Positions 4,540 to 59,112 of a stretch of DNA of 64,000 nt are shown piece after piece. This DNA comes from Thermodesulfobacteriota bacterium. GTDB lineage: Bacteria > Desulfobacterota > WTBG01 > JAGOGO01. Position 1 is the first letter of the stretch. Each line of letters begins with the position of its first letter. Under the pieces are notes generated by a model. The model made no database searches. It was not told the DNA's origin and saw only the letters and a program-made list of their open reading frames with translations. The stretch is from the NCBI GenBank assembly GCA_026625185.1, contig CP113000.1:2043124-2107123 (forward strand), given 5' to 3'. Position numbers and translations under genes: made by a program.

Positions 4540-5290
4540 TATCGAAATCAAAGCCGAAGAAATTAATTTCTATTACGGGACTAAGCAGGCGCTCAAAAAT
4601 ATCCATTTAGTAATTTATGAAAAACAGGTAACCGCGCTTATCGGTCCTTCAGGATGTGGAAAATCCACCTTCATTCGATTGTTAAATCGGATGAACGACC
4701 TTATCCCGCACACCCGGGTAGAAGGGAAAATCTATTTTGAAGGACAAAACATCTTTGAAGAAAATGTTGATGTCGTGAGTCTTCGAAGACGAGTGGGCAT
4801 GGTTTTTCAAAAACCAAACCCCTTTCCCAAGACGATTTTTGAGAATGTGAGTTACGGACTGGAAGTCAATGGGATAAAGGACAAAAAATTCATCGAAGAG
4901 AAAGTAATCGAATCGCTCAACCAGGCAGCGCTATGGAAAGAGGTAAAAGACCGTCTCCATGACAGCGCTTTGGGACTTTCCGGGGGGCAGCAACAACGGC
5001 TTTGCATTGCCCGTTGTTTGGCGGTTGAGCCTCACGTGATTTTATTTGACGAACCATGCGCAAGCTTAGATCCGATTTCGACTCGAAGCATTGAAGAACT
5101 TATCTTGGAATTAAAAAAATACTATACGATTGTAATTGTAACCCACAACATGCAGCAGGCAGCACGCATTTCTGATTTTACCGCTTTTCTTTATTTGGGC
5201 GAGTTAATCGAATTCGGTCTTACCGAAAAATTATTTACGGTTCCCAAACAAAAAATGACCGAAGAATATTTAACCGGAAAATTTGGATAA
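4529..5290 (+). CDS. pstB: Phosphate ABC transporter ATP-binding protein PstB
   Basis: Walker [13 protein letters not shown] signature LSGGQQQRL, Walker B ILFDEP. Confidence 0.9.
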
Positions 5291-6403: not shown

Positions 6404-7282
6404 GGGCGAGATTTGGTCTTTTTGTGTTCATGATTAAATAGTCGCGATGCTTTTGGAAACTGGTACCCAACGTTGAAATCAACGACGGCTGTAAGCCATC
6501 TGCTTATTTGTTTGTTATGCCATTATTGGTGCGCTACCGGACGGAGTTCGTAAATTCGCCCATATTTCCCCGCCGACTCCAAATCCCCCTGTCGCAGAGC
6601 ACTTCCCGTGCGCTCAGTCCATCCTCGGCTAACTCGTCATATCAGCGCTCAGATATCCTAACATCTCCGGTGCGTATCAGAGAACACCCTTTCTCGACAA
6701 ACTCACTCAAGCCTCATTCTCCATTTTGCTCAGCAGGTTTTTCATGGCATAAAAATGATTGATCCCTATAAGACCCAAATGCGTTATCCAATCCCTATAA
6801 GAAACCTAAAAACACTTTAAAATTTATCCGTAATGCTTTATAATTATAATCTATTTAAAATATACTCATTTTTGCCGAGGTATTATGCGGATCGGGATAA
6901 CCTCACCTTATCATAATTTTTAGATCGTATCAATTGGCCAAAAAATTCCACCCGGACCACGATTAAGGACATGGGTTTAAATCATTGTCGTATTCAAAAC
7001 AAAAAAGACCGCTCACCTTTATTTTCGGTGATTCGGCCGTTTTTTTATTAATCTTAAAAACCCATCCAATTAAAGCTACTCTTTTCATTTATCCCAATTA
7101 TCTTTATGTGTGTTTGATATTATTTTTTTAATTCTAACCGGATGAGAAGTCAATAAAAAAACTAAAAAATTATGTAGTTATATTAAATCGATAAAATTAT
7201 ATTGATAAATAATCCTCTCATCGAGTTTGCTTAAAGATTGGTTGAGAATTTGGCTGTGGTTTGGTATAATATTTGCTGAAAT

Positions 7283-7440
7283 TAACGGCTTCGTAAAAAG
7301 TCCATATGCGGCGTTGCGCTGCATCCTCAGTCATTGCGGCGTAGAAGTAAAGTACGCCTCATTCTGTCGGATTTGCGTGCCTTGCATCTGAAGCTTTTTA
7401 CTGTGCCGTCTGATTTTTGACCTTTTACGGCTTCAACAAA
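7283..7440 (+). repeat. Interspersed intergenic repeat, family 1, copy 1. About 160 bp, 70 nt upstream of hypF.
   Basis: Shares ACGGCTTCGTAAAAAGTYCATMTGCGGCGTTSCGCTGCATCC ... GCGGCGTASARGTAAGTAMGCCTCATTCYGTCGGATTTGCGYGCCTTGCATCTGAAGCTTTTTACTGTGC(C)GTCTGATTTTTGAC with 33276..33536. An extended -10 (TGGTATAAT) lies just 5' of it. Confidence 0.5.
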
Positions 7441-7511
7441 GTTGTTGTTATTTTGTTTCCTTGTAAAAAATCGCAGAACATCATTAAAAATAGATTTGGA
7501 ATGTTACGATT

Positions 7512-9833
7512 ATGACTTTGATAAAGGATGCTTCACTCCCCATTGAACCAATAAAGCGGGCAAAGATTAGTGTGCGGGGAATTGTTCAGGGGGTGGGGTT
7601 TCGACCTTTTGTTTACCAGCTCGCCTCTAAACACGGTCTGAAAGGATGGGTGTGTAATACTTCTGGTGATGTAAAAATTGAAGTGGAAGGTTCGACTGAT
7701 TCTCTTCAATTATTTTTGGAGCAGCTTAAAACCAAGGCGCCGCCGCTCGCTCTGATTGAAGAAGTAAATCAACTTTATTTACCGCCCGATGGTTATCAGC
7801 GTTTTGAAATCCGAGAGAGCAATCCGGAAAAAGGTAAATACCAGCGCATTTCGCCGGATATCGCCACGTGCCCCTTGTGCCTGCAAGAAATACTAGACAA
7901 AAACGACCGGAGGTATAGCTATCCCTTTACCAACTGTACCAACTGTGGTCCCCGGTTTACTATTATCCAAGATATTCCTTATGATCGACCGGAGACTACG
8001 ATGCGAACATTTAAAATGTGCCCGGAATGTCAAAAGGAGTATGACAATCCTGTTGACCGGCGCTTTCACGCGCAACCCAATTGCTGTCCCACCTGCGGTC
8101 CGAAACTTGCAATCATTGATCAGGCCGGAAAGATGATTGCTTCTCAGGATCCGGTTCGTGATGTTTGCGTTTTACTGAAGCAGGGGAAGGTGCTTGCTTT
8201 AAAGGGGTTGGGCGGTTTTTTGCTGGCGTGTGACGCCACGAACGAACCGGCGGTAATCACTTTAAGACAAAGGAAAAAAAGACCCTTTAAACCTTTTGGG
8301 GTCATGATGGCTTCGCTTGAGGAGGTAAAGAAGTGTTGTTTGGTATCACCGGAGGAGGAGAAGCTTCTTTGCTCCACGAAAGCGCCCATCGTTTTGTTAA
8401 AACTTAAAAATAAAAGCGTGATCGCATCGTCAGTAGCTCCAAACCTAAACTACTTAGGCGTGATGCTACCGTACACGCCCCTTCATCATTTAGTGATGCA
8501 CGGGGTTTCATTGCCCCTGGTGATGACGAGCGGCAATCTTAGCGAGGAACCGATCGCCAAGGATAATGAGGAAGCGTTAAGGAGGCTGTCAGGAATTGCC
8601 GATTATTTTATTGTGCATAACCGGGATATTCATGTCCAGTTTGATGATAGTGTGACGATGGTCGAAAATAATAAACTCCAGGTCTTACGGCGAGCGCGAA
8701 GCTATGCTCCGGATCCGATCCGACTCCCTTTTCATGCTCAAGAAGTCTTAGCGTGCGGAGCGGAACTTAAAAATACTTTCTGTATCACCAAGGACGAGTA
8801 CGCTTTTATAAGCCAGCACATCGGCGACCTGGATAACCTTGAAACCTTTGGTCAATTTGAAATGGTGTTGGATCATTATAAAAAGCTTTTTCGATTAAAC
8901 CCCCGGATCATCGTCTGTGATCAACACCCCGATTATCTTTCCAGCCGGTATGCGCAAAAGCTTAAAACCGCGAATGATGATCTCAACCTAATTTCCGTCC
9001 AGCATCATCATGCTCACATTGTAAGCTGTGTTACTGAAAATAAAGTCGCGCCGCCGGTTTTAGGCGTTGCGTTTGATGGCACCGGGTACGGCGAAGATGG
9101 ATGCATCTGGGGAGGAGAGTTCCTTGTGGTTGATTATGGCAAATTTCAACGGCTCGGACACCTGGAATATATACCAATGCCGGGAGGGGAGAAGGCGATT
9201 AAAAAACCTTTTCGTATGGCCATAAGTTATCTTGCACAGCTCTCAGGCACACAAACCTTAAACCGACGGCTCGCATTTCTTAAAACCGTGGAGGAGAGGG
9301 AGTTGGAACTTATCAAAAAACAAATCGAAAAAGGAATCAACACCCCTTTAACCTCAAGTTGCGGTCGTTTGTTCGACGGCGTATCAGCTTTATTAAATAT
9401 CCGGAATGAGGTTGACTATGAAGGTCAAGCTGCGATAGAATTGGAAATGATTGCCGGTGAGGGGAAAGATACGGGGAAGAGATATCCTTTTGAAATTGGC
9501 GAAGAGAACGGAATAAAAATTGTGCGGCTTCAGAAACTTTTTGCGGCAATTCTTGAAGACGTTGATCATGGCGTTACTAAAACCGAGATATCGTCTTGCT
9601 TCCATCATTCAGTCGCCCACATGGTTGGCCGCATGTGCCAAAACCTTGCTCGAGATACAGGTATAAAAAAAATAGCGTTAAGTGGAGGGGTATTTCAAAA
9701 CCGACTACTTCTCAGGCTGACCTCTTTTTATCTTAAAAAAGCAGGGTTAAAAGTCATTATCCACCGGGAAGTCCCCACCAATGACGGGGGAATTTCCTTG
9801 GGCCAAGCAGTGATTGGTAATTTTATTGCTTAA
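7512..9833 (+). CDS. hypF: [NiFe]-hydrogenase maturation carbamoyltransferase HypF
   Basis: Acylphosphatase N-terminus (VRGIVQGVGFRPFVY), two CxxC-x18-CxxC zinc-finger pairs, a YrdC-like domain and a Kae1/HypF C-terminal domain. 773 aa. Confidence 0.9.
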   Translation: MTLIKDASLPIEPIKRAKISVRGIVQGVGFRPFVYQLASKHGLKGWVCNTSGDVKIEVEGSTDSLQLFLEQLKTKAPPLALIEEVNQLYLPPDGYQRFEIRESNPEKGKYQRISPDIATCPLCLQEILDKNDRRYSYPFTNCTNCGPRFTIIQDIPYDRPETTMRTFKMCPECQKEYDNPVDRRFHAQPNCCPTCGPKLAIIDQAGKMIASQDPVRDVCVLLKQGKVLALKGLGGFLLACDATNEPAVITLRQRKKRPFKPFGVMMASLEEVKKCCLVSPEEEKLLCSTKAPIVLLKLKNKSVIASSVAPNLNYLGVMLPYTPLHHLVMHGVSLPLVMTSGNLSEEPIAKDNEEALRRLSGIADYFIVHNRDIHVQFDDSVTMVENNKLQVLRRARSYAPDPIRLPFHAQEVLACGAELKNTFCITKDEYAFISQHIGDLDNLETFGQFEMVLDHYKKLFRLNPRIIVCDQHPDYLSSRYAQKLKTANDDLNLISVQHHHAHIVSCVTENKVAPPVLGVAFDGTGYGEDGCIWGGEFLVVDYGKFQRLGHLEYIPMPGGEKAIKKPFRMAISYLAQLSGTQTLNRRLAFLKTVEERELELIKKQIEKGINTPLTSSCGRLFDGVSALLNIRNEVDYEGQAAIELEMIAGEGKDTGKRYPFEIGEENGIKIVRLQKLFAAILEDVDHGVTKTEISSCFHHSVAHMVGRMCQNLARDTGIKKIALSGGVFQNRLLLRLTSFYLKKAGLKVIIHREVPTNDGGISLGQAVIGNFIA

Positions 9834-9853
9834 CAAAAGAAGGATTTCAGGTC

Positions 9854-10066
9854 ATGTGTCTTGCAGTTCCATCCCAGGTTAAGTCAATTGAGGGACCGTA
9901 CGCTGAGGTAGAAATTGGCGGCGTCTCCCGGAATGTGAGCATTATTCTCACTCCGGATGTTAAGGTTGGGGACTATATTTTGGTACATACCGGATATGCC
10001 ATTGGAGTGGTAGATGAGGACGAAGCTCAAGCAACGATAAAGCTGTTTAATGAATTAAGCGGATAA
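9854..10066 (+). CDS. hypC: Hydrogenase maturation factor HypC
   Basis: Starts MCLAVP, the conserved Cys2 HypC signature. 70 aa. Confidence 0.85.
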   Translation: MCLAVPSQVKSIEGPYAEVEIGGVSRNVSIILTPDVKVGDYILVHTGYAIGVVDEDEAQATIKLFNELSG

Positions 10067-11166
10067 TGATAAAATTTCTTGATGAGTACCGCGATCCGGA
10101 ATTGGCTCAGCGTTTAGTTGAGAAAATCCGTAACCGTGCTATCCGGAGTTTGAGGCTTATGGAGTTTTGCGGCGGCCATACCGTAGCGATCATGAAATAT
10201 GGTCTTCGCCGGCTTCTTTTTCCCCCGGTGGAATTGCTTTCGGGGCCAGGCTGTCCGGTCTGTGTTACGGCCAATGTCGACATTGATAAAGCAATCGCTT
10301 TAGCCCAAAAACCGGAAATAATTTTAACTACCTTTGGCGATATGCTCAAAGTGCCGGGCAGTTATTCCAGCCTCCAAAAAACAAGGGCTGAGGGCGGTGA
10401 TATAAGGATTGTTTACTCGGCGCAAGATGCTTTAGAGATCGCCCAAGGAAATCCGGACAAAAAAGTTGTCTTTTTGGGTATTGGTTTTGAGACCACTGCC
10501 CCTACCATTGCTGCCTCGATTCTTGAGGCTAAAAGCCGGGAGATCAAAAACTATTATGTCCTGTCCCTGCATAAACTCTGCCCCCCGGTGATCAAAGCGC
10601 TTCTTGATTCAGGAGAAACTAGACTCGACGGTATCATCCTGCCCGGGCATGTAAGCGCTATTATCGGCTCCTATCCTTATGAATTTATCCCCTGCGATTA
10701 TGGTATTGGCGGTGTTGTTGCCGGGTTTGAGCCTTTGGACCTTCTGCTGGCAGTGGAAATGCTTATCGCTCAGATCGAAAACCAAAAACCCACGATCGAG
10801 ATCGCTTACCGGAGAGGAGTTAAAACCGAGGGAAATAAAAGGGCACGGGAGATAATGGAAATGGTATTTGATATTACCGAGGCTAACTGGCGGGGACTTG
10901 GCCGGGTGCAGGCAAGCGGTCTCACGCTTAAGCGGGAATATCAAGACTTTGATGCTGAAGCTTCTTTTGTTCTGGAAGCAGCTCCGGCAAAAGAACCCGA
11001 AGGATGCGTGTGCGGAGAAATTCTACGGGGCATTAAAACGCCGCTCAATTGTAAACTTTTCGGCAAACAGTGCACTCCTGAACAGCCGGTTGGACCCTGC
11101 ATGGTTTCTTCGGAAGGTTCTTGCGCGGCTTATTATTTATATGGCGGGTCAAACAATGGAAGATAG
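10066..11166 (+). CDS. hypD: Hydrogenase maturation factor HypD
   Basis: CGGHT, GPGCPVCV and FETTAP motifs. The C-terminal Cys cluster is CxxC...C. Confidence 0.9.
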   Translation: MIKFLDEYRDPELAQRLVEKIRNRAIRSLRLMEFCGGHTVAIMKYGLRRLLFPPVELLSGPGCPVCVTANVDIDKAIALAQKPEIILTTFGDMLKVPGSYSSLQKTRAEGGDIRIVYSAQDALEIAQGNPDKKVVFLGIGFETTAPTIAASILEAKSREIKNYYVLSLHKLCPPVIKALLDSGETRLDGIILPGHVSAIIGSYPYEFIPCDYGIGGVVAGFEPLDLLLAVEMLIAQIENQKPTIEIAYRRGVKTEGNKRAREIMEMVFDITEANWRGLGRVQASGLTLKREYQDFDAEASFVLEAAPAKEPEGCVCGEILRGIKTPLNCKLFGKQCTPEQPVGPCMVSSEGSCAAYYLYGGSNNGR

Positions 11167-12160
11167 AATAATCCTTGCACATGGAAGTGGCGGAAAACTG
11201 AGCCATGACTTAATAAAAGATTTATTGCTTCGGGAATTAGGAAATCCTTGCCTGAACCTTTTAGATGATGCCGCCACTTTAACACTCAATGGCCGCCTCG
11301 CCTTTACTACTGATAGCTATGTGGTTAGTCCGCTTTTTTTCCCGGGAGGAGATATTGGGAAACTGGCAGTCTGTGGAACGGTCAATGACCTCTCGATGGT
11401 GGGGGCTATTCCTAAGTATGTGAGCCTTTCGCTGATAATCGAGGAAGGATTTTTATTAAAGGAGCTGAAAAAAATAATTTCCTCCATTCATACTACCGCG
11501 CAAAAAGCAGGAGTGGAAGTGGTTACCGGCGATACAAAAGTGGTTAATCGCGGATCAGCCGATAAGCTTTTTATCAATACCGCGGGTATCGGGATTATTC
11601 CTGATGGGGTGGAACTCTCCGGATCAAATGCCAAGATTGGCGATAAAATAATCCTGAGCGGTCCCCTTGGCGATCATGGGATTGCAATTCTTTGTCAACG
11701 GGAGGGCCTTAAGTTTAAAACGTCCCTTGAAAGTGATTGTGCTCCCTTAAACACGCTGGTCGCTGATATGTTAGAAGCATCAAAAGAGATTCACGTTCTT
11801 CGTGATCCAACCCGGGGTGGTCTGGCAAGCACGCTTAATGAGTTTGCCGAAAGTTCTAAGGTAGGAATAAAAATCGCGGAAGATAAAATACCCGTTAGGG
11901 ACGCCGTGCGGGCAGCTTGCGAACTTTTAGGATTTGATCCGCTTTACGTAGCCAATGAAGGGAAATTGGTGGCAGTGGTTTGTTCTCAAGCTGCAGAAAA
12001 AGTTTTGTCTAAGATGCAAAAAAACGAACAGGCAACTCAAGCAGCAATAATTGGTGAAATTGTGGCTGACCACCCTGGAAAAGTGGTCATGAAGACCCAG
12101 TTTGGCTCCTCGCGGATTATTAGTATGTTGGCAGGAGAGTTGTTGCCCCGAATTTGCTGA
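11156..12160 (+). CDS. hypE: Hydrogenase maturation factor HypE
   Basis: AIR-synthase-like fold starting MEDRIILAHGSGGKLS. The track ORF 10868..12160 is an upstream extension in the same frame that overlaps hypD. The start at 11156 overlaps the hypD stop by 11 nt. Confidence 0.8.
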   Translation: MEDRIILAHGSGGKLSHDLIKDLLLRELGNPCLNLLDDAATLTLNGRLAFTTDSYVVSPLFFPGGDIGKLAVCGTVNDLSMVGAIPKYVSLSLIIEEGFLLKELKKIISSIHTTAQKAGVEVVTGDTKVVNRGSADKLFINTAGIGIIPDGVELSGSNAKIGDKIILSGPLGDHGIAILCQREGLKFKTSLESDCAPLNTLVADMLEASKEIHVLRDPTRGGLASTLNEFAESSKVGIKIAEDKIPVRDAVRAACELLGFDPLYVANEGKLVAVVCSQAAEKVLSKMQKNEQATQAAIIGEIVADHPGKVVMKTQFGSSRIISMLAGELLPRIC

Positions 12161-12417
12161 AACAGTTTAAGAAAATTTACCTGATAGAATTTTTACAGGT
12201 TGTCAAAAAAAGTTATAATTCTTCTTTTCCCCGATCTTATTATTCCCGTCCATAGAACTTTCTCGCCTGATTTACTCCTTTTTTGTAAGGAACCTAGTTG
12301 ACATTTTACTTTTGAAAATTTGTTTAATAATTATCTCGTTATAAAGTAAAAAAATTAGAAAATGGAATTATGACCCGGTCTCGGGAAAAATGAAAATGAA
12401 GGAGAAAAAATAGGGAG

Positions 12418-12448
12418 AATTTTACTGTTAGGTATAAATTATGCTTGT
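12418..12448 (+). promoter_or_regulatory. Conserved promoter-like motif AATTTTACTGTTAGGTATAAATTATGCTT upstream of the fdh operon. It has sigma-54-like GG-N10-GC spacing and alternatively reads as a -10-like GGTATAAA.
   Basis: Nearly identical to 22106..22136 upstream of the hydrogenase operon. GG and GC are 10 nt apart, as in TGGCAC-N5-TTGCW. Confidence 0.35.
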
Positions 12449-12959
12449 TGGAAAATGCTTGTTGGGGAAAAGAACAAAGCTGACACTGGATTTGGGTAAA
12501 TAATTAATCCGGAGTTGGCACATAGTCAAAGCGTAAAACGATGATTTTGTTTTCTGCCCGTGGTAAGGATGTCGGCTTCATGAAAAATCCCTCAGTACTG
12601 TCATTTTGGGCAACTTGACGATTTTTTTTATAAAACTTGTAAAAAGGATAAGGTTTCTTCCCGCAGCCGAAAAACCAGGGTCAGCAAAATCGGACTTTTT
12701 GCGAAGCTGTCGAGGGTAATTAATTTGGGAAAAATATGGGGCAGGGGTAGAGATTTCTTTGAATGCGGTAAAATTTATGATAACCTCGCCTACCAAGTTA
12801 AGTATTGCAGTTGAATAGAGCCATTAAGAGACAAAGTATAAAGAAGTCACTTTCGATAACCACCGATAAACCGAGAGAAAATTCGATTTATTAAGTGATA
12901 CTAATTTTTTTATATTTTTATAGTTCACTCTGATTCCAGGTAAAAAAAGGAGTTTAATT

Positions 12960-15659
12960 GTGCAAGAAATTAAGTTCACCATCAATGGAAAAGATGTGAC
13001 AGGGGGAAAGGGCCAAACTATTCTTGAGATTGCTTTGAAAAATGGATTTGATATCCCATACTTATGTTATCATCCCAAGATCAGCAAAACCGGTGCTTGT
13101 CGTATGTGTATTGTTCGGGTTAATGAGGTAATGTTAAAAACAGCCTGCACAGAGCCGGCAATGGAGGGGATGAAAGTAATTACTGAGGATGAAGAGATAA
13201 TAAAAATAAGAAAGGGGATTTTAGAACTCCTTCTTGCCGAAGGCGACCATAATTGCCTTTATTGTGATGCCAATGGTGCATGTGAATTACAGACCCTTGT
13301 ACACCGATATAATATTGATCAGGTAGCTTACGAATATCCTAAACGAAACCGCGAGATTGATTATGAATCGAGTGAGGGTCTGAAGAGAAATGAAAACAGA
13401 TGCATCCTCTGTGGAAGATGTGTGAAGGCATGTGGGGAGATCCAGTTATCAAATGTGTGGAGTTTTACTGATAGAGGAGGTCATACTCACCTTACCTCAG
13501 GTTTATATGAAAAGATCGGGGATTCGAGTTGTGTTAAATGCGGCGCATGTGTTCAGTTGTGTCCCACTGGTTCCCTTTCATTCCAGACGGTCCTTGGGAG
13601 AGGTGAAAATTGGGAACTCACAAAGGAATCAAGCATCTGTATTTACTGCGGGGTTGGATGTAAGATTGACTACTATAAAAACAAGGAGGGTCTACTTGTA
13701 AAGACTATTGGTCATGATGATGGACCCAACCGGGGACATCTCTGCGTTAAGGGAAGATTTGGATTTGATTTTATTCAGAACGGAAAGAGATTATCAAAAC
13801 CCCTTATCAAGCGAAACGGTGTATTCGAGGAGGCAAGCTGGGATGAAGCCCTCGATCTTGTTGCCAGTAAGTTTATTGAGATAAAAGACAAGTATGGTCC
13901 TGATTCTATTGCTGCACTATCTTCAGCGAAATGCACAAATGAAGAGAATTATTTGATGCAAAAAATTATGCGGGCAGTAATCGGGACGAATAATGTAGAT
14001 CACTGCGCTCGTCTCTGACACAGCTCAACCGTCGCCGGTCTGGCGGCTGTATTTGGTTCCGGAGCAATGACTAACTCTATCCGTGAGGTGCCTCTTTCAG
14101 AAGGTTTTCTGGTAATAGGTTCCAACACCACAGAAAACCACCCGGTCATCGGTTCGATGATAATGAAAGAAGTGATTAATCAGGGCAAGAAGCTGATAGT
14201 AGTCGACCCCCGTGAGATTGAGCTTTCCCGATATGCCGATTATTATTTTCAAATCAAGCCAGGTACAAATATCGCGATCCTCAACGGTTTTATGCATGTG
14301 CTGATTAAGGAAGGAATTTTCAATAAAGAATACGTCGAGAAGCGGTGCGAAGGCTTTGAGGCGATGGCGAAAATCCTTGAGAAATATAACCCTGAATTTG
14401 TCGCAGAGATTTGCGGAATTGATAATCCGGAAGATATTGTTAAAGCAGCGCGTCTCATGGCGCAGCTAAAACCTATGGCTCTCTATTATGCAATGGGGAT
14501 TACCCAGTTTGTCTCAGGGGTAAATGGCGTAAAGTCTACGGCAAACCTTCAGATGCTCCTCGGTAATTTAGGCATCCCGGGTGGAGGAGTTAATCCCTTG
14601 CGGGGACAGAATAATGTGCAAGGCGCATGCGATATGGGCGCGCTTAATGCGGTGTATCCCGCATATCAACCGGTTGCAAGTGAGGAGAATAAAGAAAAGT
14701 TTGAAAAGGCATGGGGTGTTTCAGGATTGCCTACCAAACCGGGTCTTACCATAGTTGAGATGTTTAATGCTGCAGTTGCCGGAAATTTAAAGGCAGTATA
14801 TGAGATGGGCGAGAACCCTGTGATGTCCGATCCCAATCAACACCATGTGATTGAAGCGCTTGAAGCTCTGAATTTTTTTGTTGTTCAGGATATTTTTTTT
14901 ACGGAGACAGCCCAGTATGCTGATGTGGTATTACCGGCATGTTCGTTTCTCGAAAAAGAGGGAACGGTAACCAATACCGAGAGAAGGATTCAACCCATGC
15001 ACAGGGTGCTTCCGCCCTGGGGTGACGCGAGGGATGATTGGTGGATCACCATGCAGATAGCCAATAGAATGGGCGCACAATGGGATTATAAAAAGCCTGA
15101 GGATATCTTTGAGGAGATAAGGATGGTTACTCCCTCCTATGCGGGAATCACGTATGAAAGGGTTGAGAAGGAACTGATACAGTGGCCATGCCCTGCGAAA
15201 GATCATCCGGGAACACAGTATCTGCACAAGGAAAAGTTTTCACGGGGACTTGGTTTACTTACGGGGATAGATTATACCCCGCCGGCAGAAGAAACCGACA
15301 CTGACTATCCTGTAATCCTGACGACCGGACGTATCCTCGAACATTTTCATACCGGAACCATGACCAGAAACTCAAAAATTCTTGATGAGATTGTGCCTGA
15401 GGGATTTGTGGAAATTCATCCCAACGATGCAAAAATTTATAACATCACGGATGGCGAAGTTATATCTATATCTTCGAGGAGGGGTAGCATCAGAATTAGG
15501 GCAAGGGTTACGGATAGGTCGAAACCCAATGTGGTTTTTATTCCATTTCATTTCTTCGAAGCGGCTGCGAACGAACTGACTATAGATGCTCTTGATCCGA
15601 CATGTAAGATCCCGGAGTACAAAGTGTGCTCTTGCAAGATTGAAAAAATTTATCTGTAA
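12960..15659 (+). CDS. fdhA: Formate dehydrogenase alpha subunit, a selenocysteine-containing molybdopterin enzyme with an N-terminal 2Fe-2S/4Fe-4S NuoG-like domain. Single gene read through the in-frame TGA at 14016..14018.
   Basis: The track splits it into 12960..14018 and 14067..15659 in the same frame. The sequence around the TGA reads [31 protein letters not shown], matching the FdhF active-site context CARV-U-HGPSVAGL. The N-terminus has ferredoxin-type Cys clusters. The C-terminus is MopB_CT-like. GTG start with an AAGGAG RBS. Confidence 0.85.
14016..14060 (+). promoter_or_regulatory. Sec codon (UGA) plus downstream SECIS-like hairpin GUCGCC-GGUCU-GGCGGC
   Basis: The hairpin starts about 13 nt 3' of the UGA. 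The GGUCU apical region resembles the E. coli fdhF SECIS loop. Confidence 0.5.
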
Positions 15660-15674: not shown

Positions 15675-17498
15675 ATGTTAACAACAGAGGACATTAAAGG
15701 CGTAATCGAGAAAAGAGGAAGCTCAAAAGAACATCTTATGTTTATATTGCGGGATCTCGAGAATATTTCTGGTAATAATCAACTTGAAATTGATGTGTTG
15801 GAGAAAGTAGCTGAGATAACAAAAATCCCAAAGAGCACCATTGCAGGTTTTGTGGGCTTCTACACCATGTTCAAGACAAATCCCAGGGCACCCTTTATTA
15901 TAAGGGTTTGCAAGTCAGGGCCTTGTCATGTTATGGGGGCAAGAACAATTTTTGATGCAGTAGAGCGAAATTTAGGCATTAAGCCTGGAGAAGCAACCCC
16001 TGATGGTCTGTTTTACCTTGAACAGTGTGAATGCCTTGGTGTTTGTTCGGTAGCCCCTGCTATGATGATAAACTACGATATCCATGGTAACCTTACTGAG
16101 AAAAAAATAAAACAAATTTTAGAGTCTTATAAATCCCAAAAGGCAATTTTTGGAGAAAAATGCGGGCCGGAGGTAGAAGGAAAGGCTTGCGTTATTGATG
16201 ATGATAGACAGACAAAGAGACTTTTAGTCATGGTCGGCAAAGTCGACCCTCTTAGCATTGACAGTTATATAAAAAATGGCGGTTATGCCGCGATAAGAAA
16301 GGCCATCAGAGAATATTCTTCAGATGATGTGATCAATATTGTGAAGGATTCAGGGCTCAGTGGCAGAGGTGGCGCGGGATTCCCGGCAGGGTTAAAGTGG
16401 TCATTTATGCCGAAGGGGGATATGCAAAAGTACGTAATTTGTAATGCCGACGAAGGGGAACCGGGAACTTTTAAAGACAGGGTTCTGATGGAGGAAAATC
16501 CTCACTTGATTATTGAGGGGATGCTGCTTTGCGGATATGCGACCGGCGCCACCGTTGGTTATATTTACGTGCGAGGGGAATTCAGGCGCGCTATTGAAAG
16601 ACTTCAAAGAGCCATTGACCAGGCAAGAGAAAGCCGAATGTTGGGGAAGCACCTTTCCGGTTCGACATTCAGCTTTGATATTTTCATCAAAGAAGGTGGT
16701 GGGGCGTATGTATGCGGTGAGGAATCATCGCTTATGAATTCAATGGAAGGCAAGCGGGGTTTTCCGCGGTTCAGACCACCATTTCCCGCGGGTGCTGGTT
16801 TTATGGGGATGCCGTCGAACGTCAATAATGTTGAGACATACGCATCGGTCCCGATGATTATTGAGCATGGTGCCACGTGGTATAAGTCACTGGGCACAGA
16901 AAAGTGCTCTGGAACAAAACTTTACTGCCTATCCGGTAAGCTGAACAGAACAGGGCTGGTTGAACTGCCCATGGGGACAACCCTTCGTGAACTCATTGAT
17001 ATATATGGTAAAGGCATTAAAGATGGAAAAACCTTTAAATTTGCCCAGGTGGGCGGTTCAGCTGGGGGCGTTTTTGGTGAGGATTTGCTTGACCTCCCTC
17101 TTGATATAGATCAGACAATAAAAGCTGGTGTTACGCTTGGTTCCGGAGTTGTGCTTGCGTGCGATAAGGATACCTGTGCGGTTGATTTTCTTCTAAATAT
17201 AATCAGTTTTTTTGCGCACGAATCCTGTGGTCAGTGTGTCCCTTGCAGGGTCGGGACATCACAGTTACACTTTCTTGCAAAGAAATTTGCAATGAGGACA
17301 GCAGTAGAAAAGGATATTGATTCTATGATTGAAAAAGCACAGTTGATGAAGCAGGCTTCTCTTTGTGCGCTCGGGCAATCACCTATATTACCTATTACAA
17401 CCACATTGAAATATTTCAGGGAGGAGTTTTTGAATCACTGTAATACAAGATACAGTTGCCCTGAGTGTGACATGACGTTGGAAAGGTTTTACAGGTAA
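15675..17498 (+). CDS. fdhB: Formate dehydrogenase beta (diaphorase) subunit, a NuoE-like 2Fe-2S domain fused to a NuoF-like FMN/NAD(H)-binding 4Fe-4S domain
   Basis: The N-terminal thioredoxin-like 2Fe-2S Cys pattern is CKSGPC...CECLGVC. It is followed by GRGGAGFPAGLKW and CNADEGEPGTFKDR (NuoF 51-kDa signatures) and a C-terminal CGQCVPCR. Confidence 0.8.
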   Translation: MLTTEDIKGVIEKRGSSKEHLMFILRDLENISGNNQLEIDVLEKVAEITKIPKSTIAGFVGFYTMFKTNPRAPFIIRVCKSGPCHVMGARTIFDAVERNLGIKPGEATPDGLFYLEQCECLGVCSVAPAMMINYDIHGNLTEKKIKQILESYKSQKAIFGEKCGPEVEGKACVIDDDRQTKRLLVMVGKVDPLSIDSYIKNGGYAAIRKAIREYSSDDVINIVKDSGLSGRGGAGFPAGLKWSFMPKGDMQKYVICNADEGEPGTFKDRVLMEENPHLIIEGMLLCGYATGATVGYIYVRGEFRRAIERLQRAIDQARESRMLGKHLSGSTFSFDIFIKEGGGAYVCGEESSLMNSMEGKRGFPRFRPPFPAGAGFMGMPSNVNNVETYASVPMIIEHGATWYKSLGTEKCSGTKLYCLSGKLNRTGLVELPMGTTLRELIDIYGKGIKDGKTFKFAQVGGSAGGVFGEDLLDLPLDIDQTIKAGVTLGSGVVLACDKDTCAVDFLLNIISFFAHESCGQCVPCRVGTSQLHFLAKKFAMRTAVEKDIDSMIEKAQLMKQASLCALGQSPILPITTTLKYFREEFLNHCNTRYSCPECDMTLERFYR

Positions 17499-17533: not shown

Positions 17534-18352
17534 ATGGCTCATAAACCTGTAGAAATTGTTGAGTTGGCTGGAGATGCTGGGAAATACAAGGGAAATCTGA
17601 CGCCGGGAAACTGGTTGATAAGGAGTTTCATGGCGGGACTTTTTATTGCGGTGGGCGGAGCCCTTGCCACGGTCTGTTCCACCGGGACAACAATTCCGGG
17701 CATTAAATCCCTCATTGCCGGGGCGGTCTTCCCGGTCGGCCTCATCGCGATTGTTATTACTGGTATGTCGCTTTTTACCGGTGATACCATGCTGATTCCC
17801 ATGGCGGTATTTCAGAAAAAAACCACCTGGGGAAAAGTTTTTAACGGGTGGTTATGGGTTTATATCGGAAATTTCATCGGTTCGCTTTTCTGGGCTTATA
17901 TAATGGCGGTTGGGCCTTTCTGCAAGGGGGGTGGTTCGGAGCTAACCATTTTCGGTCAAAGTGCGATTGCAATATCCGAAGCAAAAACATTACCTTATAT
18001 GACGGTCGGCGGTATGGGACTCTGGTCGGCATTCATGAAGGGCATCGCCTGCAACCTGCTCGTGAACGTTGCCATCTTGCTGGCACTTTCATCGAAGAGT
18101 ATGGTGGGTAAGTTTTTCGGGATCTGGTTCCCGATCATGGCCTTCGTATCATCAGGCTTTGAACACTGCGTGGCCAATATGTATTTTATTCCTGTGGGAA
18201 TAATGATGGGTGCAAATGTTAGTTGGGGTCAGTTCATCCAATGGAACCTGATCCCGGTTACTCTCGGCAATATCGTCGGAGGGTTCGTATTTATCGGTGC
18301 GGTCTATTTCTGGTCATTTAAGAAGGAACTATCCACTGTAGCTCAAACCTAA
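17534..18352 (+). CDS. focA: Formate/nitrite transporter family channel (FocA/NirC-like)
   Basis: Six-TM protein with FNT-family signatures (GMSLFTGDTM, NLLVNVAI, FEHCVANMYFIP). Directly follows fdhB. Confidence 0.8.
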   Translation: MAHKPVEIVELAGDAGKYKGNLTPGNWLIRSFMAGLFIAVGGALATVCSTGTTIPGIKSLIAGAVFPVGLIAIVITGMSLFTGDTMLIPMAVFQKKTTWGKVFNGWLWVYIGNFIGSLFWAYIMAVGPFCKGGGSELTIFGQSAIAISEAKTLPYMTVGGMGLWSAFMKGIACNLLVNVAILLALSSKSMVGKFFGIWFPIMAFVSSGFEHCVANMYFIPVGIMMGANVSWGQFIQWNLIPVTLGNIVGGFVFIGAVYFWSFKKELSTVAQT

Positions 18353-18421: not shown

Positions 18422-18463
18422 AAACAAATGCCCCGACCACCAAATGGTCGGGGCATTTGTTTT
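18422..18463. terminator. Perfect hairpin AAACAAATGCCCCGACCA-ccaaa-TGGTCGGGGCATTTGTTT followed by TTATT, between convergent focA and the CBS gene
   Basis: Read directly in the sequence. 18-bp stem. Confidence 0.7.
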
Positions 18464-19870: not shown

Positions 19871-20488
19871 ATGTGTAGCCTCAATAATTTTAGAAACACC
19901 ATGGCCAGTGTTATTCTTGCGGGCGGTGAAAGCTCTCGAATGGGTAAAAATAAGGCTTTTATTGAGGTTAACGGCGTCCGTATGATAGATCGTACGGTAT
20001 CCCTTTTAAAAGAAATTTTTGACGAAGTTATACTGGTTACCAATTCACCTTTTGAATTCCTAGATCTCGACATCAAGATAGTAAAAGACCTTATCCCAAA
20101 GATAGGTCCTCTGGGAGGCATTTATACGGGTCTTTTTTTCTCATCTTCACCGAAAGCCTTTTTTGTTGGCTGTGATATGCCATTCCTTAACAAAGAAGTT
20201 ATCCAATATTTCCTTGACTTAGCTGAGACAGCGGAGATTGTAGTTCATCGACTAAATGACTATTGGGAGCCCCTCCATGCGGTTTATTCCCGCAGTTTTA
20301 TGAAATCAATTGAAAGACTTATTGAGCTAGGTGAACGAAAAATAATAAAAGGCTATAAATGGACAAAAGTGCATGAAGTAACGAGAGAAGAACTTACGCT
20401 CTTGGACCCGGACTTGCGCTCGTTGCTTAATTTTAATACCCCCGAGGAGTTAAAAAAACTTTTGGATATATACACACCATATGGGTAG
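19871..20488 (+). CDS. mobA: Molybdenum cofactor guanylyltransferase MobA-like nucleotidyltransferase
   Basis: VILAGGESSRMGKNKAF at the N-terminus, about 195 aa, MobA-like fold. The start may be the internal ATG at 19901. Confidence 0.7.
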   Translation: MCSLNNFRNTMASVILAGGESSRMGKNKAFIEVNGVRMIDRTVSLLKEIFDEVILVTNSPFEFLDLDIKIVKDLIPKIGPLGGIYTGLFFSSSPKAFFVGCDMPFLNKEVIQYFLDLAETAEIVVHRLNDYWEPLHAVYSRSFMKSIERLIELGERKIIKGYKWTKVHEVTREELTLLDPDLRSLLNFNTPEELKKLLDIYTPYG

Positions 20489-22212: not shown

Positions 22213-23262
22213 ATGGAATTAAAGAAAATTGATAAGCCTGATCTAGGTCTCTTTCTTCAGAATCTTATCAAGGATTTTCAGGTGGAGGGGGTTAAAAGAA
22301 AAGGGCAGTCTGTTTATGGCCAGTCCTTTTTTTATGGTTCAATCAATGCTCCCGATGAGCTATGCTTGGATTTTGACTGTACGACCATGCCTCCCAAAAA
22401 GTATTTTATCCCCCCCAAAGAAGAATTGCTTAAATTCACTATCGCCCCTAAACCGGAAGTTGCTGAGGTGATCGAAAGCAAACCGCTTATAATCTTTGGC
22501 GTCCATCCTTATGACCTTAAGGCTGTTAATCAAATGGATAAAATCTTTAGCGAAGGGAACCCGGATCCCAATTATTTAAAACGAAGAGAAGGAATTTTAC
22601 TTATTGGGGTTGATCCGACAAAGGTTTCCCCTCGTTCTTTCTGGAACTCCATGGAGGCAGCTTCAGTATCATCAGGCTTTGATTTGATGCTCACGGATAT
22701 CGGCGAAAGCTATCTGGTAGAGGTAGGAACCGATAAGGGCGGCAATCTTCTCAAAAAGTATGCAAAGGTTAGCTCAGTTACTAAGGAAGAAGAACAAAAG
22801 CGAATCGACGTCAGATCTAAGATCTGGAATATGTGTAAAAAAAGAGCGCTGAACTTTCCTATGCGAGAACTGCCTTCTTTGTTGGTTAATTCTCTGAATA
22901 GTCCTCTTTGGGATGAAAAAGCGAGCAAATGTCTTAGTTGTGTGACCTGTAATATGGTTTGCCCGACGTGCTACTGTTTCGATGTATGGGATGATGTTGA
23001 GCTTGACCTTACCCATGGGCAACGTTATCGCCGTTGGGACGGATGCTTAGCTTCTGATTTTGCAAAAGTTGCCACCGGAGAGAATTTTCGCGAGACTCGG
23101 GCTGCAAGATACCGTCATCGTTTTCTCCGCAAAGGACAATACCTGTTTTCTAAATTAAATGATGCTGCGTGTGTGGGGTGTGGCCGATGTGCGGCATATT
23201 GTCTCCCTGATATTGCCGATCCGGTGGATGTCTTTAATAGATTAAAGGAAGCTGTGAAATAA
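22213..23262 (+). CDS. Sulfhydrogenase-type [NiFe] hydrogenase beta subunit (4Fe-4S, HydB/AsrA-like)
   Basis: CLSCVTCNMVCPTCYC and CVGCGRCAAYC ferredoxin-like clusters. Architecture typical of group 3b/3d beta subunits. Confidence 0.7.
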   Translation: MELKKIDKPDLGLFLQNLIKDFQVEGVKRKGQSVYGQSFFYGSINAPDELCLDFDCTTMPPKKYFIPPKEELLKFTIAPKPEVAEVIESKPLIIFGVHPYDLKAVNQMDKIFSEGNPDPNYLKRREGILLIGVDPTKVSPRSFWNSMEAASVSSGFDLMLTDIGESYLVEVGTDKGGNLLKKYAKVSSVTKEEEQKRIDVRSKIWNMCKKRALNFPMRELPSLLVNSLNSPLWDEKASKCLSCVTCNMVCPTCYCFDVWDDVELDLTHGQRYRRWDGCLASDFAKVATGENFRETRAARYRHRFLRKGQYLFSKLNDAACVGCGRCAAYCLPDIADPVDVFNRLKEAVK

Positions 23263-23276
23263 GGAGGGAATCTATC

Positions 23277-24113
23277 ATGAATCATTCGATGCCAGACGGT
23301 TCTCCTTATGTACCCAAGTGGGCGGAGATTTCCCGAATCGAGAAGCTTACGGAAAGTGAGAAACTTTTTGAATTACGCCTCTCGAATGGGCAGCCGTTGG
23401 GTCATAAGCCCGGTCAGTTTGTAGAAGTATCTGTTCTGGGGATTGGAGAGGCTCCCATATCAATTTCTTCTCCCCCAATAAATGATAATTCTTTTGAACT
23501 GGCAGTTCGAAAGGTAGGGAATGTTACCAATGCGATGCACAACCTTGGGGTTGGGGGCAAGCTTGGAATTCGAGGACCTTTTGGCACCAATTTTCCAATT
23601 GATGAAGCTAAGGGGAAAGATATTTTATTTGTGGCTGGAGGAATCGGGTTGGTTCCCTTACGGTCCTTTATCAAATTTGTGCTGGAAAATAGAAAAGACT
23701 ATGGAGAGGTTACGGTCTTATTCGGTGCCCGTAATCCCTCGGAGCAGCTTTTTCTCAGCGAACTTGAGCAATGGAGGGGGAGAAAGGATATCTCGTACCT
23801 GGAGACAGTAGATCGAGCCGACGAAAATTGGAAAGGAAACGTTGGGGTTATCACCACCCTTTTTCCTAAAGTTCAAGTTGATCCTGCTAAAACGATATGT
23901 GTTGTGGTTGGCCCTCCGGTAATGTATCGATTTGTTATCATGGAGACAAAAGCGAAGGGCATACCGGACAAGCAAATTTTCCTTTCCCTCGAAAGAAGAA
24001 TGAAGTGTGGACTGGGGAAATGCGGTCATTGCCAGATCAATAATATTTATGTCTGTCAGGATGGTCCGGTGTTAAGGTATTCGGATATCTTTGCTTTAGA
24101 GGAGGCGCTGTGA
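23277..24113 (+). CDS. Hydrogenase gamma subunit: FNR-like FAD/NAD(P)-binding oxidoreductase with a C-terminal 2Fe-2S motif
   Basis: FAD-binding RLSNGQP/GHKPGQFV, NAD-binding GGIGLVPLRS, C-terminal CGLGKCGHCQ. Confidence 0.7.
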   Translation: MNHSMPDGSPYVPKWAEISRIEKLTESEKLFELRLSNGQPLGHKPGQFVEVSVLGIGEAPISISSPPINDNSFELAVRKVGNVTNAMHNLGVGGKLGIRGPFGTNFPIDEAKGKDILFVAGGIGLVPLRSFIKFVLENRKDYGEVTVLFGARNPSEQLFLSELEQWRGRKDISYLETVDRADENWKGNVGVITTLFPKVQVDPAKTICVVVGPPVMYRFVIMETKAKGIPDKQIFLSLERRMKCGLGKCGHCQINNIYVCQDGPVLRYSDIFALEEAL

Positions 24114-24853
24114 TGGATAAACCAAGAGTAGCTTTTTTTGATTTTGCGAGCTGCGAGGGTGATCAGCTCCAAATCGTAAACCTGGAAGAGGACCTCTTGA
24201 AGGTAGTTGGGGCGGTAGATGTTGTGAGTTTCAGGGAAGCCATGAAAGGGCACTCGGACAATTATGACATCGCCTTTGTTGAGGGTTCGATTACTCGTCG
24301 CTCAGATGAACCGAGGCTTTTGGAAATTCGTAAAAATGCAAAAATTTTAGTAGCAATTGGAGCATGCGCTACGATAGGGGGCGTTAACTTGCTCAAAAAT
24401 TTTCAGGACCTGGAAAGCGTAAGAAAATTTGTTTATGGAGATAAGTTTTTCCAGTATGAGACCTACCCGGCCCGACCTATCAAAGCAGTGGTTCCGGTAG
24501 ATCTCGAAATCCATCAATGTCCTATAAATCGGGATGAATTTGTCATGGCATTTAAAGCGCTTCTTATGGGGAAAAAACCGGAATTTCCCAATTATCCGGT
24601 ATGCGAGGACTGTAAAAAAGCTGAAAATATTTGCGTTTTCGAAATGGGGATGACCTGCATGGGACCGGTTACCCGAGCAGGTTGCGGAGCTTGTTGCGTT
24701 GTGGAAGGAAGCGTGTGCTGGGGATGCCGTGGATTTATTGATCATCCCAATGCGGACTCGGAAAGAGAAGTCTTGGCTAAGTATGGTCTGAGTGTAGGCG
24801 ACATTCTTAAAAAATTTCGACTTTACACTGGCTTTTCGGAGGTGTCAAAATGA
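24110..24853 (+). CDS. [NiFe] hydrogenase small (delta) subunit, Oxidored_q6/NuoB-like
   Basis: VAFFDFASCEGDQLQ, GACATIGGV, and a distal cluster CPINRDEF...CEDCK..C. Confidence 0.75.
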   Translation: MMDKPRVAFFDFASCEGDQLQIVNLEEDLLKVVGAVDVVSFREAMKGHSDNYDIAFVEGSITRRSDEPRLLEIRKNAKILVAIGACATIGGVNLLKNFQDLESVRKFVYGDKFFQYETYPARPIKAVVPVDLEIHQCPINRDEFVMAFKALLMGKKPEFPNYPVCEDCKKAENICVFEMGMTCMGPVTRAGCGACCVVEGSVCWGCRGFIDHPNADSEREVLAKYGLSVGDILKKFRLYTGFSEVSK

Positions 24854-50013: not shown

Positions 50014-50547
50014 GTGATCAGTGATGTTTATCTGTCCACATTTTTAGCCATAATTCTTTTGATTGCGGCAATATACGACATTTGGGTTGCTAAAATTCCC
50101 AATGTGATCACGTTCTCCGGTATGATAACCGGCATTATATATCATGGGGCAGCTCAGGGTTTGAGCGGGGCCGGGCTGAGTATTGCCGGCCTGCTGGCAG
50201 GGAGCGCGGTATTTTTCCCTTTTTACCTGCTGAAAGGAATGGGAGCCGGGGATATAAAGCTGATGGGAGCGGTGGGCTCCTTAGTGGCCTGGAAAGGAAT
50301 AATCCCGGCTATTGTTTTTACCGCGCTGGCCGGAGGCATTTATGCGTTTGCGCTTATTTTTTGCAATCCCAGTACCTGCAAGAGATTGATCTTTGGATCA
50401 ATATCAATGTTTAAGACTCTTGCGCTGACCGGGCAGATTGTTCTTCCCTCCTTATTTGAAAAGGAGAAAAAGCCGCAGGTGCGTTATGGGGTGGCGATCG
50501 CCGCGGGAACTTTATTTTCGCAGTGGTGGTGGCCGCTGCTTAAGTAG
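50014..50547 (+). CDS. cpaA: Prepilin peptidase CpaA/TadV (A24 family)
   Basis: Polytopic protein with conserved catalytic Asp residues (IYDIWVAKIPN and GMGAGDIKLMGAVG). Confidence 0.7.
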   Translation: MISDVYLSTFLAIILLIAAIYDIWVAKIPNVITFSGMITGIIYHGAAQGLSGAGLSIAGLLAGSAVFFPFYLLKGMGAGDIKLMGAVGSLVAWKGIIPAIVFTALAGGIYAFALIFCNPSTCKRLIFGSISMFKTLALTGQIVLPSLFEKEKKPQVRYGVAIAAGTLFSQWWWPLLK

Positions 50548-50827
50548 TTTTGGGGAACGCTCATTAATTTCTCTCCAACCAAATTTTTCCTTTTACCACC
50601 CCTTTGAAAATGGGTAGAATTGGTTTATTTCTCTTTTTTAAAGTGGAAAATCAAGTTTTCCTCTTTAATTAATGGAAAAAAAACAAATTTTTCTTGAAAT
50701 TTTTCTTGAAATAAATAAAAAACATTGTAAAATATATTTCAAATTGCTTATTTTTATCCCATGAGAAAATTTTCTAACGGCTAAAGTAAAGAAAAATTCT
50801 CATCAGATAAAGAAAGGGGTGAATCTT

Positions 50828-55289: not shown

Positions 55290-55301
55290 GCGAACTCCTT
55301 T

Positions 55302-56188: not shown

Positions 56189-56197
56189 TTTTTCTCC

Positions 56198-59110: not shown

Positions 59111-59112
59111 GG

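Follow-up and report, generated by a model that had tools for sequence, protein, structure and literature searches.

Do two neighboring open reading frames (ORFs) of a Thermodesulfobacteriota bacterium, which gene callers treat as two genes, encode a single formate dehydrogenase (FDH) with selenocysteine (Sec) in its active site? The ORFs lie in a 64,000-nucleotide stretch of contig CP113000.1 (assembly GCA_026625185.1, positions 2,043,124 to 2,107,123). We call this whole stretch the window, and positions are those of the window unless another contig or locus is named. The first ORF (12960..14018; 352 amino acids (aa) with a GTG start) and the second (14067..15659; 530 aa) share a frame, and a lone TGA at 14016-14018 stands between them. 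An earlier note made from the letters alone (the sequence-only reading) had pointed to the common frame and to the translation around the TGA, and had proposed one Sec-containing gene, fdhA, split at its UGA. We agree: the read-through translation of 12960-15659 is 899 aa long with the TGA as its single internal stop, and the two ORFs are very probably one gene for a soluble FDH in which the UGA encodes the active-site selenocysteine. The features of the gene are:

12948..12952, + strand: Shine-Dalgarno sequence AGGAG, 7 nucleotides (nt) ahead of the GTG start of fdhA, as read from the sequence
12960..15659, + strand: fdhA, one 899-codon gene for the catalytic alpha subunit, from matches to Pfam, NCBIfam and the PDB
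14016..14018, + strand: UGA, predicted codon for Sec at residue 353, the ligand of the molybdenum or tungsten (Mo/W), from alignment with homologs

In the region 13996-14075, the codons read:

GAT CAC TGC GCT CGT CTC TGA CAC AGC TCA ACC GTC GCC GGT CTG GCG GCT GTA TTT GGT TCC GGA GCA ATG

One gene across the in-frame UGA

Family models run through the TGA. In Pfam, the first piece matches Fer2_4, NADH-G_4Fe-4S_3, a 4Fe-4S dicluster domain, Molybdop_Fe4S4 and the start of Molybdopterin, while the second piece matches the remainder of Molybdopterin and Molydop_binding; the break falls inside the Molybdopterin domain (profile positions 81 / 97). TIGR01591 (Fdh-alpha) is matched at positions 2-128 before the TGA (170.7 bits) and at positions 130-672 after it, with the TGA itself at profile position 129. 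The C-terminal piece alone scores 682.3 bits (the cutoff is 666.25), and the protein has the Molybdop_Fe4S4, Molybdopterin and Molydop_binding domains of the Fdh-alpha family above the curated cutoff. It also has a NuoG-like N-terminal iron-sulfur (Fe-S) extension (TIGR01973 NuoG, 252 bits, residues 7-350). In order, the protein contains a 2Fe-2S domain, a NuoG-type 4Fe-4S cluster, two ferredoxin-type 4Fe-4S clusters, and the domains for the Mo/W-bis-pyranopterin guanine dinucleotide cofactor.

Solved structures match the read-through protein from end to end (residues 4-894): FdsA of Rhodobacter capsulatus (6tg9_A, 4e-211) and the alpha subunit of the tungsten FDH1 of Methylobacterium extorquens AM1 (MeFDH1; 7vw6_A/7e5z_A, 2e-208). 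The catalytic part also matches an F420-dependent FDH (9t1s_L, 3e-217), FdhF of the hydrogen-dependent CO2 reductase (7qv7_S), and FdhH of E. coli (1aa6_A, 3e-175). The key residues are Sec353, His354, and Arg548, so that the Sec/Cys ligand, the histidine and the catalytic arginine of this family are all in place. U353-H354 aligns with Cys386-His387 of FdsA (CARVCHSPT) and with the X-H of 9t1s_L (CARLXHSATV), which fixes the position of the Sec as the sequence-only reading had placed it; the PLRGQNNVQG motif around Arg548 is the same in 6tg9_A.

The enzyme had also been described as soluble rather than membrane-bound, and this holds. FdhA opens straight into its 2Fe-2S domain, an inspection of the translation found no twin-arginine leader at its N-terminus, and the operon contains no membrane or cytochrome subunit.

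Within the window, the TGA at 14016 is unique. A six-frame scan found no other TGA that joins two long open stretches (here 364 + 546 codons). The other TGA-joined candidates on either strand total under 310 codons and look like out-of-frame noise, so the scan of both strands gave no other long in-frame TGA that could mark a second selenoprotein.

We then compared the codon across relatives by scanning one genome per species, which gave 80 homologous loci, 78 of them with a resolvable codon at the Sec site. The codon is TGA in 67 of the 78 and TGC or TGT in the other 11, so the site has UGA where homologs have either Cys or UGA, as expected for a selenoprotein. In a protein search of the whole database, we found at least 115 full-length homologs, with Cys at the site in all 115 matches listed, and, among the matches listed, five 530-aa fragments of 83-89% identity that are broken at the same place. 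The nearest full-length homolog among them comes from a Syntrophorhabdus metagenome-assembled genome (MAG), is 79% identical, and has Cys in an otherwise identical 23-residue context.

Could the TGA be a nonsense mutation or a sequencing error, in a pseudogene that makes at most a 352-residue Fe-S fragment? Gene callers do cut fdhA in two in every public assembly of the locus. FdhA has no accession in the consecutive GenBank protein series that covers the neighboring genes (WAC06535-06539), and neither fragment has an NCBI protein accession in its record; IMG names them 'YjgC-like oxidoreductase' and 'formate dehydrogenase alpha subunit'. Also, we found no sel genes in the window or in its 10-kb left flank (see below). 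However, the 2700 nt of fdhA have 0 mismatches to three other assemblies (a Joint Genome Institute (JGI) metagenome contig, an NCBI MAG, and a Logan assembly), so four independent assemblies are identical. (Proteins of the window are also recorded in GCA_029216075.1 and in several JGI metagenomes.) At the species level, 67 loci share a TGA at this codon, the hairpin that follows it covaries, and the 546 codons downstream are open and 83-89% identical to relatives. Over the 16 codons from the TGA to the ATG chosen by the gene caller, the closest species-level relative has 5 synonymous and 0 nonsynonymous changes. We give the pseudogene explanation next to no weight.

A gene that is truly split, with an N-terminal Fe-S protein and a catalytic protein from ATG 14067 that assemble non-covalently, has just as little chance of being right. 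There is a GGAG just ahead of that ATG, and some related enzymes do have modular Fe-S and catalytic subunits (HylA and FdhF2; PMC5736913). But a spacing of only 2 nt separates this GGAG from the ATG, and the two lie within conserved Gly-Ala-Met coding sequence. In the second product, the metal ligand, His354, and 15 more residues that are strictly conserved in the protein would be missing; homologs with Cys are read through uninterrupted; and the break lies within a domain rather than between domains. The two ORFs are one gene. For practical purposes, the evidence excludes inactivation as a pseudogene, sequencing errors, a true split of the gene and reassignment of the stop codon.

One of the loci with a Cys codon is the most interesting by-product of our analysis. 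In a Candidatus Cloacimonadota MAG (JAXHUB010000281.1), the fdhA Sec site is TGC (2768-2770 of that contig). The hairpin at 2783-2799 is intact, with 6/6 pairs, and SECIS_3 scores 43.4 bits at the site. A 90-nt tRNA lies 560 nt past fdhA (4961-5050); it matches the Rfam tRNA-Sec model (53.7 bits; the threshold is 47) and has a GCA anticodon. A selA gene lies 2 kb beyond the tRNA (7070-8473; TIGR00474, 548 bits), and no selB was found within the locus. Judging from these sequences, the active-site Sec of this FdhA appears to be encoded by UGC and read by the tRNA-Sec with the GCA anticodon. Recoding of a UGC codon for Sec was reported by Mukai et al. 2016, as cited in PMC8124441.

The hairpin after the UGA

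If the UGA is decoded as Sec, then a selenocysteine insertion sequence (SECIS) should follow it. The sequence-only reading had noticed a stem-loop about 13 nt after the UGA and had taken it to be this element. It has these features:

14031..14047, + strand: apical SECIS hairpin with a 6-bp stem, GUCGCC (14031-36) and GGCGGC (14042-47), and the loop GGUCU (14037-41), -8.9 kcal/mol
14013..14071, + strand: match to Rfam SECIS_3 (RF01989) at its full extent, with the UGA aligned; the region's own fold adds lower helices GCUC/GAGC and AACC/GGUU

The hairpin starts at the 13th nt after the UGA (a 12-nt spacer), and its apical loop, which opens with GG, begins 21 nt from the U of the UGA. Criteria for bacterial SECIS elements attributed to Zhang and Gladyshev in 2005 reportedly put the apical loop at a distance of 16-37 nt from the UGA and include a G or U in the loop. 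The hairpin agrees with this geometry in the distance of its loop, in the G within it, and in its position just after the UGA.

The strongest evidence for the element is comparative. We aligned 68 distinct sequences that contain the TGA, without gaps. In the apical 6-bp helix, 99.0% of the cells have standard pairs. Pair 21:33, which links the third positions of the Val codon and of the second Ala codon, is GC in 43 sequences, CG in 13, UA in 6, AU in 5 and GU in 1, with none unpaired; the closing pair 24:30 (third positions of Ala and Leu) is CG in 60 and AU in 7. The covariation score is 0.360, versus 0.150 for shuffled alignments, and 0/500 shuffles score as high. Slid registers are at most 61% paired, and the GGUCU loop is found in 64/69 sequences. 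In 12 loci with a Cys codon, the same columns are only 62.5% paired. These comparisons bear out the proposed stem-loop, and on this evidence we consider the apical hairpin to be a genuine, selected SECIS element. With its changes at synonymous codon positions, the 68-species alignment is an unusually clean case of SECIS covariation.

The hairpin is lost in most Cys-codon loci, unlike one from Syntrophorhabdus sp. PtaU1.Bin058 (L087; MVRS01000219.1). There, the codon is TGT (7057-7059 of that contig), and the hairpin GTCGCC-GGTCT-GGCGGC is the same as in the window, with 6/6 pairs. It could have been kept by chance (about 10% expected), because of a recent switch from Sec to Cys, or because the hairpin is still used. 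We found no tRNA within 6 kb of this fdhA.

Several observations weigh against Sec decoding or against our description of the element. First, the SECIS_3 match (42.8 bits, E = 1e-8 in 301 nt, full-length over model positions 1-59) came from a scan by E-value and does not reach the gathering score of 63, and conserved coding sequence accounts for part of its bits; at the gathering threshold, Rfam reports no SECIS in the window. (SECIS_2 scores 20.9 bits.) Second, the folding energy of 14016-14075 is no better than that of shuffled sequences (z = -0.35), and the 100-nt fold has z = +1.29. So, when the UGA region is folded and compared with SECIS models, as the sequence-only reading had suggested, the hairpin does appear in the minimum free energy (MFE) fold, but the energy is not significant and the model score falls short. 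Because folding energy is uninformative here, the hairpin's reality rests on the comparative evidence. Third, the lower helices are 53-65% paired among relatives, with no single conserved register, and therefore we claim only the apical element. (One consensus lower stem, as in the MFE fold of the window itself, was considered and dropped for its 53-65% pairing in relatives.)

Fourth, we found no sel gene and no tRNA in the 64-kb window, using ARAGORN and searches of about 50 ORFs against Pfam and NCBIfam, nor any of selA, selB, selC, and selD in the 10 kb on its left side; a prophage tail module occupies the right side. With E. coli SelA, SelB and SelD as queries, phmmer searches of every ORF in the window and in 83 loci gave no matches among the ORFs of the window. 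If the UGA is read as Sec, then the genome would encode all four sel genes elsewhere, as the sequence-only reading had predicted.

In another locus with a Sec-type fdhA (L013), a 746-codon frame (11050-13287, + strand) lies 2.4 kb downstream of that gene and combines a NifS-type cysteine desulfurase (aa 16-388) with SelD (aa 400-744). This is either a fusion or two abutting genes.

It is also conceivable that the UGA is read through as something other than Sec: as Cys or Trp, whether through near-cognate suppression or through a recoded genetic code, or as Cys carried on tRNA-Sec when selenium is scarce. Cys does serve in place of Sec in 11 of the related loci and in 115 homologs from the database (among the matches listed). 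However, TGA terminates 12 of 51 other family-supported ORFs in the window, and therefore the genetic code is standard; there is just one in-frame case; and a conserved, covarying GGUCU hairpin would be pointless without SelB-dependent decoding. We consider a non-Sec reading of the UGA very improbable and continue with Sec at residue 353.

The FdhAB-FocA operon and its neighbors

What does this FDH pass its electrons to? The sequence-only reading had placed a NuoE/NuoF-fusion subunit and a FocA channel downstream of fdhA, and matches to Pfam and NCBIfam confirm both. The downstream features are:

15675..17498, + strand: fdhB, a 607-aa diaphorase with a NuoE-like 2Fe-2S domain (aa 8-153) and a NuoF-like module for flavin mononucleotide (FMN), NAD(P)H and 4Fe-4S (aa 190-588)
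17534..18352, + strand: focA-like channel of the formate/nitrite family, 272 aa (PF01226, 259 bits)
18422..18462, both strands: bidirectional intrinsic terminator, an 18-19 bp GC-rich palindrome with T runs, which ends the fdhA-fdhB-focA operon (terminator scan)
19871..20488, + strand: mobA, molybdenum cofactor guanylyltransferase (PF12804, NF001457)

fdhB starts 16 nt past fdhA, and focA follows after a gap of 35 nt. FdhB contains the 2Fe-2S_thioredx, Complex1_51K, SLBB, and NADH_4Fe-4S domains (TIGR01959, 509 bits), so the adjacent NuoF-like and NuoE-like parts of FDHs with complex I modules are here fused in one protein. FocA is securely assigned to its family; its specificity for formate is a prediction from sequence, as TIGR04060 (formate_focA) scores 162 bits, below the cutoff of 290. 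Past the terminator there is an opposite-strand gene with a CBS pair and then mobA, which is in a separate transcription unit. MobA is a plausible accessory for making the bis-molybdopterin guanine dinucleotide cofactor. Near fdhA in the 80 related loci, NuoF-like genes are found in 45, mobA in 13 and focA in 9.

The locus is a cytoplasmic, probably NAD(P)-linked FdhAB-FocA operon. It does lack some features of related operons: profile searches of the ORFs in the window found no gene for the FdhD/FdsC sulfurtransferase and none for FdsD. R. capsulatus has both, but they are specific to the proteobacterial fds operon and are not needed for the two-subunit FdhAB type.

The enzyme might instead be electron-bifurcating or confurcating (like Bfu or HylABC-FdhF2) and couple NADH to ferredoxin. 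The best PDB matches of FdhB are indeed HydB proteins of bifurcating hydrogenases (7t2r_B, 1e-139; 7q4v_B, 4e-134), which are its nearest solved relatives; FdsB (6tg9_B, 4e-82) and the beta subunit of MeFDH1 (7e5z_B, 4e-89) are weaker matches. The authors of PMC5736913 also raised this possibility for the same two-subunit architecture. However, bifurcating enzymes have a C-terminal 2x[4Fe-4S] domain on this subunit and a separate NuoE-like gamma subunit. We found no separate HylC/HydC gene; FdhB has no such C-terminal domain and ends 19 residues beyond its NuoF 4Fe-4S domain; and its alignment to 7t2r_B halts at residue 532/597 of that protein.

The diagnostic residues point the same way. According to Losey et al. 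2020 (PMC7311640), a bifurcating enzyme is marked by Ala/Glu..Met in its NADH loop, by a Phe close to the FMN and by GGPSG within its SLBB region. FdhB has ADEGEPGTFKDR (PGTFKDR; Thr, Lys) and GGGAYVCGEE (Tyr) and lacks GGPSG, so all three sites are in the non-bifurcating state. (We mapped these positions by motif, without a full alignment to HydB of T. maritima.) Also, the beta subunit of HydAB from Syntrophus aciditrophicus is the same kind of NuoE-NuoF fusion and was found by experiment to be non-bifurcating (PMC7311640). The motif criteria on which our call leans come from that single paper, and neither the choice between NAD and NADP nor that between Mo and W can be read from the sequence. 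Overall, the sequence features favor a simple NAD(P)-linked enzyme as the probable answer, and we think that bifurcation is unlikely.

Genes for hydrogen metabolism lie on both sides of the operon:

7512-12160, upstream of fdhA: hypF, hypC, hypD, hypE
22213-26124, same strand as fdhA: four subunits of a [NiFe] hydrogenase of the sulfhydrogenase type (HydB/G/D/A), group 3b

The sequence-only reading was correct that a group-3 hydrogenase is nearby. It went on to suggest that the hydrogenase and the FDH form a soluble formate-to-H2 module, and this part of it has fared less well. The hypFCDE genes end just 0.8 kb before fdhA, the HydBGDA hydrogenase is 6.5 kb downstream on the same strand, and a pyridine nucleotide would serve both enzymes. 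In the closest Cys homolog (L087), fdhAB also adjoins a [NiFe] hydrogenase, though of a different type (HdrA/MvhD, with HypA). But a strong terminator, the opposite-strand CBS gene, and mobA stand between the two units in the window, and a shared pool of NAD(P)H could couple the enzymes without any dedicated module. Furthermore, because none of the 80 related loci have hypF, hypD, hypE or group 3b hydrogenase subunits within 6 kb of fdhA, the adjacency is not a conserved feature. The suggestion is speculation without support from synteny, and we doubt that FdhAB, FocA, Hyp and the hydrogenase form one dedicated module. That the 19 kb with Sec-FdhAB, FocA, hyp and the group 3b hydrogenase are clustered by function, as a cytoplasmic unit for formate/H2 interconversion, likewise seems quite improbable to us. 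If it were true, then a Syntrophorhabdus-like syntroph would have a counterpart of formate hydrogenlyase that is soluble and mediated by NAD(P)H.

The large subunit of the hydrogenase ends in DPCVSCSTH, with Cys, and hence is not a [NiFeSe] enzyme. HypD (10066-11166) is 365 aa on record (WAC09119, which is out of series) versus 366 aa as encoded in the window. The longest ORF for hypE (TTG 10868) overlaps hypD by 300 nt; gene callers start it at 11156 and end it at 12160.

We also noted features elsewhere in the window and next to it. A cyclic di-GMP-I riboswitch (RF01051, 49199-49280, + strand, 56.6 bits, above the gathering score) precedes a Flp/Tad cluster on the same strand, with a Flp pilin (identified from locus L088), a prepilin peptidase (50014-50547), CpaB (50819-51673), and a secretin (52047-53477). 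From 53939 to 63923 (- strand) and on past the end of the window (L088 1-9944), there is a tail module that resembles a prophage or a gene transfer agent. It encodes a Dam methylase, a C92 peptidase, Laminin_G_3, DUF2793, a 1124-aa Phage-tail_3/Rcc01698_C protein, DUF2460, a 923-aa probable tape measure protein, a tail tube protein, and a Mu Gp37-like protein. The tail-module proteins are recorded only on contigs of 50-200 kb and are absent from the contigs of >1 Mb that have the fdh operon, so this prophage module may be strain-variable.

Between a zinc-ribbon ORF and pstC, a 151-aa ORF (2315-2770, + strand) consists of a Cation_ATPase_C domain only. All assemblies have the same call, and it may be the remnant of a gene for a P-type cation ATPase. 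Just upstream of pstS, two consecutive 158-aa ORFs each match part of Porin_5 (11-487, + strand, and L084 8990-9939); these may be a porin gene that was split by a frameshift or a stop codon. To the left of the window (L084/L085 1755-4952) is an islet of defense and toxin-antitoxin genes: ParE/PhdYeFM, a CopG-like protein, a TIR-domain protein (CAP12-PCTIR), and an HTH_3 regulator. Finally, 34924-36354 and 36394-37623 (+ strand) are tandem Memo-family genes, and the first is fused to an AMMECR1 domain.

Proposed mechanism and known systems

We propose that the UGA at 14016-18 is decoded as Sec353, which would be the sixth ligand of the metal. By analogy with the E. coli fdhF paradigm, SelB.GTP.Sec-tRNA(Sec) would bind the hairpin with the GGUCU loop and so deliver the tRNA to the UGA, where it would compete with release factor 2. 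In the folded enzyme, Sec353, His354 and Arg548 would form the site for formate and CO2. Electrons would move through the NuoG-like Fe-S chain (the N-terminal 220 residues) to FdhB (2Fe-2S, 4Fe-4S, and FMN) and exchange there with NAD(P)+/NAD(P)H, without bifurcation. FocA, whose gene is probably co-transcribed, would move formate across the membrane. We only infer which pyridine nucleotide and which metal are used and in which direction the enzyme works in the cell. Among the matches listed, the nearest relative of this FdhA is that of Syntrophorhabdus, and therefore the most likely role of the enzyme is to interconvert NADH + CO2 and formate, for exchange with partner organisms.

The main value of this result is for annotation, as split gene calls could lead metabolic reconstructions to miss or mis-score a functional FDH. 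For the uncultured host, the merged gene model implies dependence on selenium; a soluble, probably NADH-linked, non-bifurcating FDH; and a channel dedicated to formate. Each of these bears on interspecies electron transfer by formate. Nothing here challenges the current view of Sec decoding or of FDH biochemistry: the locus is a further unremarkable case of a known type of gene that automatic callers routinely cut.

The textbook case of a UGA-encoded Sec in the alpha subunit of an FDH, with a SelB-binding hairpin made from V-A-G-L codons, is fdhF of E. coli. Both genes have the context CAR(V/L)-U-H..(S/T)VAGL (around UGA140 in E. coli) and a hairpin 11-12 nt after the UGA with a GGUC(U) loop and Val-Ala-Gly-Leu codons. 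Unlike FdhA, E. coli FdhH is a 715-aa monomeric subunit that docks to the membrane-bound hydrogenase-3 complex, and it has no NuoG-like extension. The stem of the E. coli SECIS (SECIS_2 type) has a bulged U, whereas its counterpart in the window can pair as U.G or U-A. Compared with the SECIS_3 model, two pairs that flank the bulged U and two pairs of the lower stem are not formed in the window.

Among NAD+-linked, cytoplasmic, non-bifurcating enzymes, MeFDH1 (7e5z/7vw6) and FdsGBAD of R. capsulatus (6tg9) are similar to FdhA over the full length of their alpha subunits. Both differ from it by having Cys as the metal ligand, and their beta subunits are farther from FdhB than the HydB-type proteins are. 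R. capsulatus also has separate FdsG and FdsB, plus FdsD and FdsC. The beta subunit of MeFDH1 is also a NuoE/NuoF fusion, or so Laukel et al. are said to have described it in 2003; in our comparison, only its NuoF part was aligned to FdhB.

The architecture of the operon has its closest parallel in heterodimeric, NAD(P)-dependent FdhAB enzymes that were predicted from single-cell genomes of the deep-sea Chloroflexi DscP3 and An-B22 and never purified (PMC5736913). As in the window, the alpha subunit has 2Fe-2S, 4Fe-4S and molybdopterin domains, and the beta subunit has thioredoxin-like 2Fe-2S, FMN, NAD(P), SLBB, and 4Fe-4S domains. The Sec (An-B22) and Cys (DscP3) forms are 78% identical to each other (PMC5736913), which parallels the FdhA of the window and its 79% identical Cys homolog. 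These enzymes are from another phylum, and no focA was reported alongside them (PMC5736913).

The NADP-dependent Sec/W FDH of Moorella thermoacetica (Moth_2312-2314) is also a cytoplasmic two-subunit enzyme that has Sec and is linked to a pyridine nucleotide, but its beta subunit has 4Fe-4S, ferredoxin-binding and NADP-binding domains in place of a NuoE-NuoF fusion (PMC5736913). A Moorellales locus in our scan (L079) has both the TGA and the hairpin. Finally, HydAB of S. aciditrophicus is an NADH-dependent enzyme whose beta subunit joins a NuoE-like stretch (aa 15-152) to a NuoF-like one (aa 177-585), the same plan as in FdhB; the catalytic partner of this subunit is an [FeFe] hydrogenase instead of a molybdopterin FDH (PMC7311640).

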